Positions 22,119 to 26,715 of a stretch of DNA of 64,000 nucleotides are shown here, one piece after another. Source of the DNA: Escherichia phage CLB_P2. Below the pieces are notes generated by a model, which was not told the DNA's origin, made no database searches, and saw only the letters and a program-made list of their open reading frames with translations. The position numbers were made by a program, and so were the translations under genes. The stretch lies in the sequence record OL770107. One strand, given 5' to 3'. Each line of letters starts with the position of its first letter. Positions within the stretch are counted from its first letter, which is position 1.

Positions 22119-22532
22119 ATGAAAGAAATCGCAGATGAATTTAGCTTTATCAAGTACGTTACACTGGAGCTCCAAACAGATGCTACTATAGCCCCTATCA
22201 CGGTTCCAAATAAACAAAATGTCATATATGCTATAGCGGTTGATGATATACTAGTCTACATCGGGAAGACTAAAAATCTTCGTAAGCGCATCAACTACTA
22301 CCGAACCGCCATTAATCGTAAGGACCAAACGTCGGATTCGACCAAGTCCATTCTGATTCATGAAGCATTAATGGCTGGTAAAAAGGTAGAGTTCTATGCT
22401 AGACAGTGCTTTAATCTGTCGATGACTAACGAACTTGGAACTATGTCAGTTGAGACCATGTCTCTTGAAGAGCCAATGTTCATAAAGAAATTTAATCCAC
22501 CTTGGAATACCCAACATAGGATAAAGCAATGA
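22119..22532 (+). CDS. denA: endonuclease II (GIY-YIG family)
   Basis: About 137 aa from ATG at 22119 (MKEIADEFSFIKY); VYIGKTKNLRKRINYYR motif; strong resemblance to T4 EndoII. Confidence 0.8.
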   Translation: MKEIADEFSFIKYVTLELQTDATIAPITVPNKQNVIYAIAVDDILVYIGKTKNLRKRINYYRTAINRKDQTSDSTKSILIHEALMAGKKVEFYARQCFNLSMTNELGTMSVETMSLEEPMFIKKFNPPWNTQHRIKQ

Positions 22533-23677
22533 TTGAATTATATGATAACTTGATGACTTTGGTTAAAAACTCGACTAAATCTAAGTTCTTCTTTAAAGAC
22601 TTCCAGAGTGCGCTAGGAGTCAACTATCGCATCTTTAGTTATAACTATGCATCGTACAGTGATTGGTTGGAAGACGGCGCACTAGAGTGCCGAGGCATTA
22701 TGTTTGAAATGGACGAGAATGGTCCTGTACGTATCGCTGCTCGTCCTATGCAAAAGTTCTTTAATCTCGATGAAAACCCACTGACTATTGGTTTGGATTT
22801 ATCACAAGAAAATATTGATTTGGTTATGGCCAAGGAAGATGGTTCCTTGATTTCTACCTTCATGGATAGACAATATCTTTCTGTTAAATCTAAAGGCTCT
22901 ATCCATTCATCGATGGTACATGATTCTTTACGTTTCCTTCGTCTCCCTGAAAACGAGGCCTTCGCTGCTCGTTTAGAAGAAATTACTAAAGCAGGCTATA
23001 CATGTAACCTCGAGTATGTTTCGCCTACTAACCGTATTGTGCTGGCATACCAAGAAACAAACCTTATCTTACTGAACGTTCGTAATAACGAAACAGGTGA
23101 GTATATCCCTTACGCTGAACTGTTTAAAGATGGCGCTCTGCGTAAGCATTTGGTTAAAAGCTATGAACTCGCTGAAGGTGATTTTGTTGACAATATCCGT
23201 AAACAAGAGGGTATTGAAGGCTTTATCTTTGTACTTAAAGATGGCACGTTCTTTAAACTCAAAACCGCTTGGTATAGCGCACTGCATCATACCAAAGATT
23301 CCATTAACAATAACGAACGTTTGTTTGAAGTTGTAGTGGCTGGTGGAACCGATGACCTCCGAGGTTTGTTCAGTACTGATTCATTTGCTATTGAGAAAAT
23401 CAATGCATTTGAACGTATTCATTTAGACTACTTAGAACAGTCCTTGGCTTTGTTAGAAGCAGCATATTCTCAGCTCAAGGGTCGTGACCGTAAAGACTAC
23501 GCTGTTACCGGTCAGTTAATCCTCAAAGACTTCCCAGGGCTGTTCTCTATTCTTATGCAGGCGTACGTAGGCGGTATTAATTATGATACGGTCGTAGACC
23601 AGATTAACTCTGTGTTCTTGAAAAATCATAAGGCCCAAATCCCTGAAAAATATTTGAAAGAAATTGTGATAGAGTAG
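22529..23677 (+). CDS. rnlA: RNA ligase 1
   Basis: 382-aa ORF; N-terminal block [28 protein letters not shown] as in T4 Rnl1; KEDGSL adenylation lysine motif; ATGA overlap with denA. Confidence 0.85.
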   Translation: [382 protein letters not shown]

Positions 23678-23705
23678 TTTACATCTCCTCATGATGTGTT
23701 AGTAT
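23677..23705 (+). promoter_or_regulatory. early promoter cassette (PeSL-like)
   Basis: GTTTAC, 17 nt, TAGTAT; inverted repeat CTCCTCAT...ATGAGGAG spans promoter to RBS. Confidence 0.45.
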
Positions 23706-23735
23706 AGACTTACCAACTAATGAGGAGAAAACAAA

Positions 23736-24236
23736 ATGAATATGCAAATGATTACTAACGAAATGGTTGTTAAAGCTTTTGGTGACTCTACTGACGGTAT
23801 CCAAGTTTTTAAAGGTTCTCGTGCAGTAGGGTACCTAACCGATCTTCGTGTTACTTTAGCTAAAAATGCTAAAAAGAAAATTAAGCAAAAAGAATACTCT
23901 ACCCGTTATGCAGAAGAAAAGCGTGAAGCCATGCCTGAAGCTGTTAACTCTATGGTTGAGTTTCTCCAAAACAACCTTTCCAAGTATGATGCTGAGGTAT
24001 TCATTAATATCAGCCAACCTAATGTCAAAATCGCAGGAATCACTTTCTATTTGATTTGCGACCCATTAAGCGATAAGTTTAATCGCCTTGGCATTTCGAG
24101 TCCTTACCATACCGCTGAAGAATTGTGCGTGATGTTCGAAACGTATAAAATCCAGTGTGAAAACCCTAAAACGGTTCTTATCAACTCCCTGTCACGTGAT
24201 GACATCATCGAGATTATTACCAAATGTCTAAATTAA
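23736..24236 (+). CDS. alc: Alc-like host transcription inhibitor (positional call)
   Basis: 166-aa ORF (T4 Alc 167 aa) directly downstream of rnlA; identity rests on size and synteny only. Confidence 0.5.
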   Translation: MNMQMITNEMVVKAFGDSTDGIQVFKGSRAVGYLTDLRVTLAKNAKKKIKQKEYSTRYAEEKREAMPEAVNSMVEFLQNNLSKYDAEVFINISQPNVKIAGITFYLICDPLSDKFNRLGISSPYHTAEELCVMFETYKIQCENPKTVLINSLSRDDIIEIITKCLN

Positions 24237-24577: not shown

Positions 24578-24864
24578 TTAAATTGACTGCTGTAATGTTA
24601 TCTATTGGATTGCTAGTTGGATGTGCCCAGGATGTTCCTGTAGCGCCTAAACAACAACTCCACCCTTCATGGCCACAACCTATTGCCGAACATAATGTTA
24701 AGTGGCAGGTTAAGGTAATCGATGGTAAGGCTTGGGTCGGTATGCCGTTTGAAGACTCACAAGAACATCGTATTTGGTTGAATGACGTAAAAAGATATGT
24801 ACAAGACCAGAAATCTATGTTATGTTATTATCGTTCCGGGTTAAAAGAGGAGAAGTGCAAATGA
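24574..24864 (+). CDS. o-spanin (outer-membrane lipoprotein spanin subunit)
   Basis: 96 aa; signal peptide with lipobox LLVGC; ATGA overlap with the i-spanin gene. Confidence 0.65.
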   Translation: MIKLTAVMLSIGLLVGCAQDVPVAPKQQLHPSWPQPIAEHNVKWQVKVIDGKAWVGMPFEDSQEHRIWLNDVKRYVQDQKSMLCYYRSGLKEEKCK

Positions 24865-25031
24865 TCGAGGCTTGTGCTGACGGGTGGGATATCGTTCGAT
24901 TTGGTTTTGCATGCTTTTGTTTTGGAATCGTGTTCAGCATGTGTATGAACGGTATTTTTGGAAAGTAGTGTACAAACTCTTGGGAGCAGAGTATAATGCT
25001 CCTACGGATTATAAAAATTGAGGAAATGACT

Positions 25032-25493
25032 ATGAAAATATTATGGTATGTTGAGAACGCTAATAATATCATGAAGTGTAAAGACGAATTCTTCCAAAAT
25101 CTGGCCCGAATTGGTTCTTGCCGTAAAACACCTTTGGAAGGTAAAGCTCGATTCTTTATTTCAGAATGTAAAGACAAAGCTATTACAGAAGTTGAATACT
25201 ACGCCCCATGGAATGATTTCCCGAGCAGAGTGTTGAAATTATCCAAGCCTATTCCTTCTGATGTGTGGAATTCAATCTTAGATGTTACTGCATGCTATGA
25301 AGAAAACCAATCACTTCATGAAGAAAAAGAACGTATTCGCGAACTGGTAAAAAGTTTTGAATACGCGGCTAAACGCCATGGCCAAATGCAATCCGCAGTA
25401 ACCCTTGGCGATGTTCCTGAAAGTGTTGCTTATGAATCCGGTAAAATCCTTAAAACCTGCCGTGAAGAACTTTATAAGGAGCTCGGTGTATGA
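25032..25493 (+). CDS. hypothetical protein
   Basis: About 153 aa from ATG at 25032 with GAGGA RBS 8 nt upstream; function unknown. Confidence 0.4.
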   Translation: MKILWYVENANNIMKCKDEFFQNLARIGSCRKTPLEGKARFFISECKDKAITEVEYYAPWNDFPSRVLKLSKPIPSDVWNSILDVTACYEENQSLHEEKERIRELVKSFEYAAKRHGQMQSAVTLGDVPESVAYESGKILKTCREELYKELGV

Positions 25494-25810
25494 AGGAATT
25501 ATTAGAAAACTATATCAAGTGCTCCGACAATTATATTGATTCATGCCACGGTGCAGTATACATGGATTTAGACCGTGGATTGGTGTTGAATGATGAAGAC
25601 CCGGCAAAAGCCTTAGATGACGCAGGCAAGGCCCTTCGCAAAGCAGCTAAAGCTAAAGGGGTGGACATGGGTGAACTAAAGAACCATTTGATTATGTTCA
25701 TCTCTGCCAATACTCGTCGCAAGTCAAGCAACAAGGCAGTAGCTGAATTAAATGAAGGACGTGTTGAATTGCGCATCCAACTCCTTAAAACTCTGTTGGG
25801 AATTAAATGA
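25490..25810 (+). CDS. hypothetical protein
   Basis: 106-aa ORF, ATGA-coupled to neighbours. Confidence 0.4.
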
Positions 25811-26715
25811 TGAAAAAGATTATTTTGACTGTAGGATGTCCTGGCTCTGGTAAGAGCACTTGGACTCGTGAATTCATCGCTAGGAACCCTGGCTATTTTA
25901 ACGTCAACCGTGATGACTACCGTCAATCAATCATGGGCCACGAAGAGCGTGACGAATACAAATACACCAAGAAGAAAGAAGGCATCGTAACCTGTATGCA
26001 GTTTGATGCGGCGAAGGGTATTTTATATGGTGGTGATTCTGTTAAAGGTGTAATTATTTCAGATACCAACTTGAATCCTGAACGTCGTTTGATGTGGGAA
26101 ACCTTTGCTAAAGAATATGGCTGGAAAGTTGAATATAAAGTATTCGATGTTCCTTGGACTGAACTGGTTAAACGCAACAGTCGCCGCGGTTCAAAAGCAG
26201 TACCAATTGACGTTCTGCGTTCCATGTATAGTCATATGCGGGCCTATCTTGGTCTTCCGGTGTATACAGGAACCCCAGGAAAACCAAAAGCCGTTATTTT
26301 TGATGTTGATGGTACTCTGGCCAAAATGGTGGACCGTAGTCCATATGACCTTGAGAAATGCTATACTGATGTTGTCAATCCTATGGTTGTTGAATTGGCT
26401 AAGATGTATGATAAGCAAGGATATTACATCGTAGTCGTTTCAGGTCGTGAAAGCGGAACCAAAGAAGACCCGACGAAATATTATCGTATGACCCGTAAAT
26501 GGGTTGAGGATATTGCTGGTGTACCATTGGCCATGCAGTGCCAACGACTACAAGGCGACGACCGTAAAGATGACATCGTGAAAGAAGAAATCTTCTGGGA
26601 AAAAATTGCTCCACATTTTGATGTTAAATTAGCTATTGATGACCGTAGCCAAGTAGTGGAAATGTGGCGACGTATCGGTGTTGAATGTTGGCAGGTTGCT
26701 CATGGGGACTTTTAA
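25807..26715 (+). CDS. pseT: polynucleotide 5'-kinase / 3'-phosphatase
   Basis: 302-aa ORF (likely start at second ATG 25810); P-loop GCPGSGKST; phosphatase motif [10 protein letters not shown]; near-identical to T4 Pnk throughout. Confidence 0.9.

Follow-up and report, generated by a model that had tools for sequence, protein, structure and literature searches.

We analysed a stretch of 64,000 nucleotides (nt) from Escherichia phage CLB_P2 (record OL770107), called the window below, with the focus on the genes of RNA repair and of lysis that lie at positions 22529-26715. Based on our analysis, this region is almost certainly the Dhakavirus copy of a conserved segment of the T-even backbone, in which the functions of RNA repair, with RNA ligase 1 (Rnl1, gene rnlA) and the polynucleotide kinase/phosphatase (Pnk, gene pseT), and the function of a two-component spanin (genes pseT.3 and pseT.2) stand side by side. 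A preliminary description of this DNA had taken the region for an RNA-repair toolkit with an embedded spanin pair, and all of the open reading frames (ORFs) that it named are present where it placed them. It is noted that the orthology, the synteny, the conservation of residues for catalysis and structure and the lipobox are read from the DNA here, while the enzyme activities, the link to the anticodon nuclease PrrC and the role in lysis are carried over from T4 experiments.

Megablast of the segment 22000-27000 of the window against a phage collection gave a full-length match of 100% identity to OZ035781 (Dhakavirus CLBP2), with Escherichia phage dhabil being 99% identical and JS10 and JS98 being 95-96% identical, and thus the window belongs to a JS98-like T-even phage (Straboviridae, Tevenvirinae, Dhakavirus). 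The window has the reversed orientation relative to the T4 map: it begins at the holin gene t, passes the tail-fibre genes, nrd, pseT, cd, gene 30 and the baseplate genes and comes to the head genes last. The T4 order nrdB-denA-rnlA-alc-pseT.3-pseT.2-(variable slot)-pseT-cd.5-cd.4-cd.3-cd.2-cd is kept, and this synteny is common to JS10, dhabil, QL01, IME341, NC-G and T4, where the T4 reference record for the pairwise protein comparison is NC_000866. The preliminary description had expected the conserved T4 arrangement here. The comparison with T4 bears this out for the gene order but not for the slot between pseT.2 and pseT, where pseT.1 of T4 is replaced by a cassette of three ORFs. That the two spanin genes lie between alc and pseT agrees with both the coordinates and the T4 comparison.

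The evidence for Rnl1 comes from the whole length of the protein. It is 49% identical to T4 Rnl1 over 377 amino acids (aa), with E 4e-128, and it matches the NCBIfam equivalog TIGR02308 ('T4 RnlA family RNA ligase') with 454.7 bits against a cutoff of 242.25, the match covering profile positions 2-373 of 373. The Pfam models RNA_lig_T4_1 (PF09511, 84.6 bits) and T4_Rnl1_C (PF20819, 157 bits, E 3e-46) both score above cutoff, and the solved structure 2c5u is matched with E 7e-112. The motif KEDGSL lies at aa 102-107 (nt 22832-22849), with Lys102 being equivalent to Lys99 of T4. For the residue comparisons we used lists of catalytic residues of T4 Rnl1, Pnk and Rnl2, the list for Rnl1 reportedly coming from mutagenesis work of the Shuman laboratory. 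All 11 mapped T4 residues of Rnl1 (R54, K75, F77, K99, G102, K119, E159, E227, G228, K240 and K242) are conserved, and in the numbering of the window they are R55, K76, F78, K102, G105, K122, E162, E230, G231, K243 and K245. The full-length match above threshold, together with the motif I (KxDG) lysine and the essential positions within motifs Ia, III, IV and V, places the protein in the T4 RnlA family.

Pnk is closer to its T4 counterpart, with 88% identity over 301 aa, and it matches the solved structure 1ltq with E 2e-185. Both of its domains are recognized by Pfam, the kinase domain by AAA_33 (PF13671, 77.6 bits) and the phosphatase domain by HAD_PNKP (PF25109, 197 bits, E 2e-58), and these models, like ALC and Phage_holin_T for the products of alc and t, exceed the gathering scores. 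The P-loop GCPGSGKST is at aa 10-18 (nt 25834-25860) and the DVDGT motif is at aa 166-170 (nt 26302-26316). The mapped T4 residues, 11 in number (K15, S16, D35, R38, R126, D165, D167, R176, R213, D254 and D278), are conserved without exception, so that the N-terminal kinase domain has the Walker A motif (GxxxxGKS) and the Asp and Arg residues at the acceptor site for the 5'-OH, with K16, S17, D36, R39 and R127, and the C-terminal HAD/DxDxT phosphatase domain has R177, R214, D255 and D279, which supports the assignment of both domains to their families.

A second RNA ligase, Rnl2 (gene rnlB), lies far from this pair. It matches TIGR02307 ('RNA ligase, Rnl2 family') with 351 bits against a cutoff of 197.15, it matches the Pfam models RNA_ligase (PF09414) and T4_Rnl2_C (PF18043, 67.7 bits) above the gathering scores, and it matches the solved structure 2hvq with E 5e-157. 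The motif KIHGTN at aa 35-40 (nt 55278-55295) and the family matches support the place that the preliminary description had given to Rnl2. The mapped T4 residues E34, K35, H37, R55, E99, F119, D120, E204, K209, K225, K227, R266 and D292 are conserved, while K189 of T4, a further position that may or may not be essential, is Ser here. With the score above threshold, the motif I KxHGxN lysine and the Rnl2-specific C-terminal domain all present, the protein is a member of the Rnl2 family. It is also noted that an exact T4-group early-promoter consensus, GTTTACA-N17-TACTAT, is present at 54790-54819 (+) upstream of 24.3-rnlB, overlapping the mechanical start of 24.3 at 54810. Since the PHROG alignment of 24.3 begins at residue 14, it is likely that the gene really starts at an internal Met, at about 54849. 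Given the promoter-like site and the later start of 24.3, rnlB would lie in an early transcription unit.

The products of pseT.3 and pseT.2 have the features of an inner-membrane spanin subunit (i-spanin) and a lipoprotein subunit of the outer membrane (o-spanin), respectively. The i-spanin has a single hydrophobic helix at aa 4-22 (nt 24233-24289; Kyte-Doolittle mean over 19 aa of 1.93), followed by a periplasmic domain of 95 aa that lacks Cys and in which 18 residues are acidic and 17 are basic. The o-spanin has the lipobox LVGC (LLVGC ending at Cys17, nt 24610-24624), and its N-terminus follows the PROSITE PS51257-type rule, with the sequence VMLSIGLLVGC, Lys3 in the n-region, an uncharged h-region and Cys17, the assignment of the signal peptide resting on this pattern rule, hydropathy and homology. 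Because Ala follows Cys17, the Asp retention signal is absent, as is expected for sorting to the outer membrane. The two genes are adjacent, with the stop codon of pseT.3 and the start codon of pseT.2 sharing ATGA at 24574-24577. It was reported by Kongari et al. 2018 (PMC6139136) that T4 pseT.3/pseT.2 complement the lambda Rz/Rz1 defect and that both cysteines of the o-spanin are essential. Cys84 and Cys95 of the o-spanin here align with Cys87 and Cys98 of T4. It was also reported (PMC6139136) that Lys117 of the i-spanin covaries with an acidic residue at position 92 of the o-spanin, and the pair in the window, with Glu117 at the end of the i-spanin and Gly at T4 position 92 of the o-spanin, is consistent with this covariation. 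Thus, the i-spanin, the signal of the o-spanin, the adjacency of the genes and the two cysteines together make the pair a two-component spanin. The alignment with T4 pseT.2/pseT.3 that had been proposed as a check gives identities of 68% and 42%, and the lipoprotein signal, whose absence would have spoken against the lipobox ORF, is found by the rule-based test. Moreover, the motifs to which the preliminary description had pointed (KEDGSL in RnlA, the motifs of Pnk, KIHGTN in Rnl2 and LLVGC) are all present, and since each sits within a full-length homologue they are not chance matches.

Based on these features, the following courses of events can be proposed. In the infected cell a PrrC-type anticodon nuclease would cut tRNA-Lys 5' of the wobble base, leaving a 2',3'-cyclic phosphate and a 5'-OH. 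The HAD-type DxDGT phosphatase domain of Pnk would strip the cyclic or 3' phosphate and the P-loop kinase domain would phosphorylate the 5'-OH, and Rnl1, adenylylated on Lys102, would then reseal the anticodon loop. Rnl2 would be available as an intact nick-sealing RNA ligase that is encoded 28 kb away, beside gene 24. For the spanin, the N-terminal helix of PseT.3 would fix this protein in the inner membrane, PseT.2 would be acylated at Cys17 before being sorted to the outer membrane, and the two would form a two-component spanin across the periplasm. Once the peptidoglycan has been removed by holin T and by the endolysin, encoded in other parts of the genome, this spanin would disrupt the outer membrane.

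The pathway of repair is known from T4, where PrrC, activated by the phage peptide Stp, cleaves tRNA-Lys and the break is mended by Pnk, which converts the ends, and by Rnl1, which joins them again, and where mutants without pnk or without rnlA are restricted on prr+ hosts (PMC3014915, PMC3884662). The gene stp would, by synteny with T4, be located outside the 64-kb window. The preliminary description had counted Rnl2 together with Rnl1 and Pnk as one counter-measure against anticodon nucleases. In favour of such a three-enzyme toolkit, the three enzymes are all intact, Rnl2 is biochemically an RNA-repair ligase (PMC3884662), and the early-type promoter consensus at 54790-54819 (+) makes early co-expression with Pnk and Rnl1 plausible. 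However, T4 that lacks only Rnl1 or only Pnk is restricted on prr+ hosts despite having an intact rnlB (PMC3014915), and because the restriction occurs in phages still carrying rnlB, Rnl2 cannot replace Rnl1. We therefore consider it unlikely that Rnl2 shares in this counter-measure. The proven counter-measure to PrrC consists of Pnk and Rnl1 only (PMC3014915) and what Rnl2 does during infection by T4 is described as unknown (PMC3884662), and thus the toolkit stands for Rnl1 and Pnk and is unproven for Rnl2.

Two other alternatives concern the spanins. It is true that a lipobox by itself does not define a spanin, and for the ORF at 24574..24864 no Pfam or NCBIfam model was matched, so that it might be a lipoprotein of another role, for example in superinfection exclusion. 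To this we give almost no credence: the ORF is 68% identical over its full length to T4 PseT.2, an experimentally functional o-spanin (PMC6139136), it matches phrog_812, it is start/stop-coupled to the PseT.3 orthologue, and it keeps both essential Cys. The other alternative is that the spanins are placed between rnlA and pseT through a functional coupling of lysis and RNA repair, by co-regulation or physical interaction, as might be suggested by the constancy of the order rnlA-alc-pseT.3-pseT.2-...-pseT from T4 to the Dhakaviruses and by the tight packing of the genes with overlapping stop and start codons. By contrast, the T-even backbone in general is tightly packed and fixed in its order, the unrelated alc sits in the same run, and the pseT.2-pseT slot is freely exchanged among phages. 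In the literature no link was found, the spanin survey saying only that these genes stand apart from t and e (PMC6139136). This coupling thus seems to us very improbable, and the two functions are best taken as unrelated neighbours in a backbone segment.

In the sequence nothing was found that contradicts the assignment of the region to this backbone segment, and two points set limits to it. One is that Rnl1 (49%) is much more diverged from T4 than Pnk (88%). At the DNA level, pseT-cd.5-cd.4 (25810..27045) is 79% identical to T4, whereas most of rnlA (22529..23677) is undetectable by blastn, and this high likeness on one side and low likeness on the other point to a mosaic ancestry. The substrate preference of Rnl1 could differ from that of T4 Rnl1, though its C-terminal tRNA-binding domain matches T4_Rnl1_C. 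The other is that no TATAAATA late promoter is present on the + strand between 18572 and 29906, and therefore early or middle transcripts probably carry the spanin genes, a timing inferred from the pattern search. In the same search the TATAAATA late-promoter consensus was found just upstream of t, at 788-795 (-), and of rIII, at 29906-29913 (+).

The lysis genes are scattered, as the preliminary description had said. Between the holin gene t and the spanins there are 23.5 kb, and rIII, one more of the dispersed lysis genes, which the preliminary description leaves out, lies 5.2 kb downstream of the spanins. The absence of an endolysin from the window, also claimed before, agrees with the search by tblastn, in which T4 lysozyme e had no match in the window (best E 0.87), and with the annotation of JS10 over the syntenic interval between gene 18 and motA, in which no endolysin is present. 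The lysis genes, with t, the spanins and rIII here and e elsewhere, are thus dispersed as in T4.

We now turn to the slot between pseT.2 and pseT. In blastn the DNA homology to T4 breaks off precisely where pseT.2 ends (24865) and returns precisely where pseT begins (25810). In T4 the slot holds the 75-aa pseT.1, whereas in the window it holds instead a 944-bp cassette at 24865..25809, with three small ORFs that we call orf35, orf155 and orf106 and with a promoter-like site (Table). The ATG of orf35 overlaps the stop codon of pseT.2 (ATGA). Its frame is open with many synonymous changes in JS10, QL01, IME341 (34 aa) and NC-G, and it is open in five Dhakaviruses; it is annotated in dhabil, QL01 and NC-G, but not in the RefSeq records of JS10 or IME341. 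The start of orf155 is likely at 25026, behind GAGGAA. The relatives of orf155 and orf106 were found in T4-like phages only, and orf106 sits beside pnk in many Tequatroviruses. The AlphaFold2 models are confident, having a pLDDT of 91.6 for orf155 and 88.6 for orf106, with no informative fold match for either, and none of the cassette ORFs has a match in Pfam or NCBIfam. The slot is polymorphic, with relatives of PseT.1 in 800 phage records, of orf106 in 701 and of orf155 in 137, and with Tequatrovirus REP2 carrying both pseT.1 and orf106. That orf155 or orf106 is a diverged T4 PseT.1 was considered and rejected, as BLASTP gave nothing and the profile-to-sequence comparison with hhalign gave a probability of 0.1%.

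At the promoter-like site, the arms GGAGCA/TGCTCC flank the -10 box. JS10 and QL01 have TTTACA-17-TATAAT there, and the PeSL promoter consensus of the T4 group is TTTACW-N17-TAYWAT (PMC4122927). From the fit of the JS10 and QL01 version to this consensus we infer that 24969-24997 may function as a promoter. The promoter/stem-loop sequence upstream of orf155 occurs as a single copy in the window, with no repeat, and therefore the support for a PeSL-like reading is that it is conserved in other phages and before different ORFs. The same leader precedes orf155 or orf106 in different phages, as would be expected of a mobile regulatory cassette.

It can be asked whether one of the cassette ORFs is an accessory factor tied to its neighbours, with orf35 modulating the spanin or the envelope, or with orf155 and orf106 being early anti-defence proteins beside Pnk. 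We regard this as improbable, and no evidence was found in the slot that ties any of the three ORFs to RNA repair or lysis. The cassette is already in deposited genomes, mostly as 'hypothetical protein', and what the present analysis does is to flag three small conserved ORFs in a polymorphic slot.

Table. Position and assignment of the features discussed (numbering of the window)
Feature	Description	Position	Strand	Evidence or remark
t	holin	116..769	-	Pfam Phage_holin_T E 4e-66
denA	endonuclease II, GIY-YIG	22095..22532	+	72% identical to T4 DenA (tblastn); Pfam GIY-YIG; JS10 annotation
rnlA	gene 63; RNA ligase 1 and tail-fibre attachment protein	22529..23677	+	382 aa
alc	inhibitor of host cytosine-DNA transcription	23736..24236	+	Pfam PF17527 (ALC) E 3e-41; 50% identical to T4 Alc
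pseT.3	i-spanin, 117 aa	24224..24577	+	42% identical to T4 PseT.3, E 3e-27; phrog_739 'Rz-like spanin' E 1e-35
pseT.2	o-spanin lipoprotein, 96 aa	24574..24864	+	68% identical to T4 PseT.2, E 2e-49; phrog_812 E 1e-43
orf35	35-aa hydrophobic/membrane peptide, MIEACADGWDIVRFGFACFCFGIVFSMCMNGIFGK	24861..24968	+	phrog_23289 E 1e-22; absent from T4
promoter-like site	sigma-70 / T4-early-type, TGTACA-17-TATAAT	24969..24997	+	consensus scan, 10/12 matches
orf155		25026..25493	+	mechanical ORF from 24996; phrog_4482 E 4e-38, aligned from residue 11; absent from T4
orf106	predicted four-helix bundle	25490..25810	+	absent from T4
pseT	polynucleotide 5'-kinase / 3'-phosphatase (Pnk)	25810..26715	+	ORF opens at 25807; T4-equivalent start at 25810
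rIII	lysis-inhibition accessory	30066..30311	+	89% identical to T4 RIII, E 8e-47 (tblastn)
rnlB	24.1; RNA ligase 2	55176..56183	+	71% identical to T4 Rnl2; adjoins gene 24 as in T4

Around the repair and lysis genes the packing is close, with the 3' end of denA overlapping the start of rnlA by 4 nt and alc overlapping the start of pseT.3 by 13 nt. No RNA genes were found in the whole window with Rfam at the gathering threshold or with ARAGORN.

Note also the following observations elsewhere in the window. Between hoc (50712..52124 +) and 24.3 (54810..55061 +) there is a minus-strand insert of about 2.7 kb, 52398..54779, which T4 does not have. It contains a second Hoc-like ORF at 52398..53264 (-), of 288 aa, whose C-terminus matches the capsid-binding end of T4 Hoc at aa 297-367 (tblastn E 1e-15), and a collagen-like protein of 501 aa at 53274..54779 (-), with long G-X-Y runs and a match to phrog_5073 'tail fiber'; the equivalents of the insert genes in JS10 are annotated 'tail fiber protein' (335 aa) and 'Hoc-like head decoration'. 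The main Hoc has 470 aa, compared with 376 aa in T4. The capsid vertex gene 24 is tandemly duplicated, at 56210..57490 (-) and 57490..58773 (-), with products of 426 and 427 aa that are 56% identical, and this duplication is also annotated in JS10. Beside the holin gene t, the ORF at 807..1595 (-) encodes a glycine-rich protein of 262 aa, which corresponds by position to the JS10 'tail fiber protein; host specificity' (a gp38-type adhesin) and not to the T4-type gp38 chaperone. In the JS10 segment L007 26905..31116, which is syntenic with the alt region of the window, two adjacent alt genes (RNA polymerase ADP-ribosyltransferase) are annotated.

The arrangement as a whole is already described, the genus is known, and there is nothing here that would surprise a specialist. 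The analysis has little importance beyond correct annotation: it confirms that the tRNA-repair pair of T4, the second RNA ligase and a T4-type spanin are kept, and it puts right the widespread practice of including Rnl2 in the counter-measure to PrrC.

Finally, we compare the region with the known systems. The rnlA/pseT pair has the same enzymes, domain architecture, mapped catalytic residues, genomic position and order as in T4, with Rnl1 being 8 aa longer here than T4 Rnl1. The rnlB gene is like that of T4 (gp24.1) in both domains, in KIHGTN and in being adjacent to gene 24 on the opposite strand; gene 24.2, which lies between 24.3 and rnlB in T4, has no detectable counterpart in the window. 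The spanins have the 'separated' architecture of T4 PseT.3/PseT.2, with genes that are adjacent, non-embedded and away from t and e. They are alike in the i-spanin of 117 aa with its N-terminal helix and no periplasmic Cys, in the identical signal/lipobox core SIGLLVGC and in the two C-terminal Cys of the o-spanin, and they differ in that the o-spanin here is 3 aa shorter, in the linker, and that T4 PseT.3 has Lys117, paired with Glu at position 92 of the o-spanin, whereas here Glu117 stands with Gly. Among the Dhakaviruses, JS10, JS98, dhabil, QL01 and NC-G share the genes and their order, including the orf35/orf155/orf106 cassette, with 90-99% DNA identity. In JS10 both orf35 and orf155 are open but unannotated in the RefSeq record, and cd.5 (26717-26905 of the window) is lacking, unlike in the window, while QL01, IME341 and NC-G carry a diverged allele of orf155 with about 52% identity.

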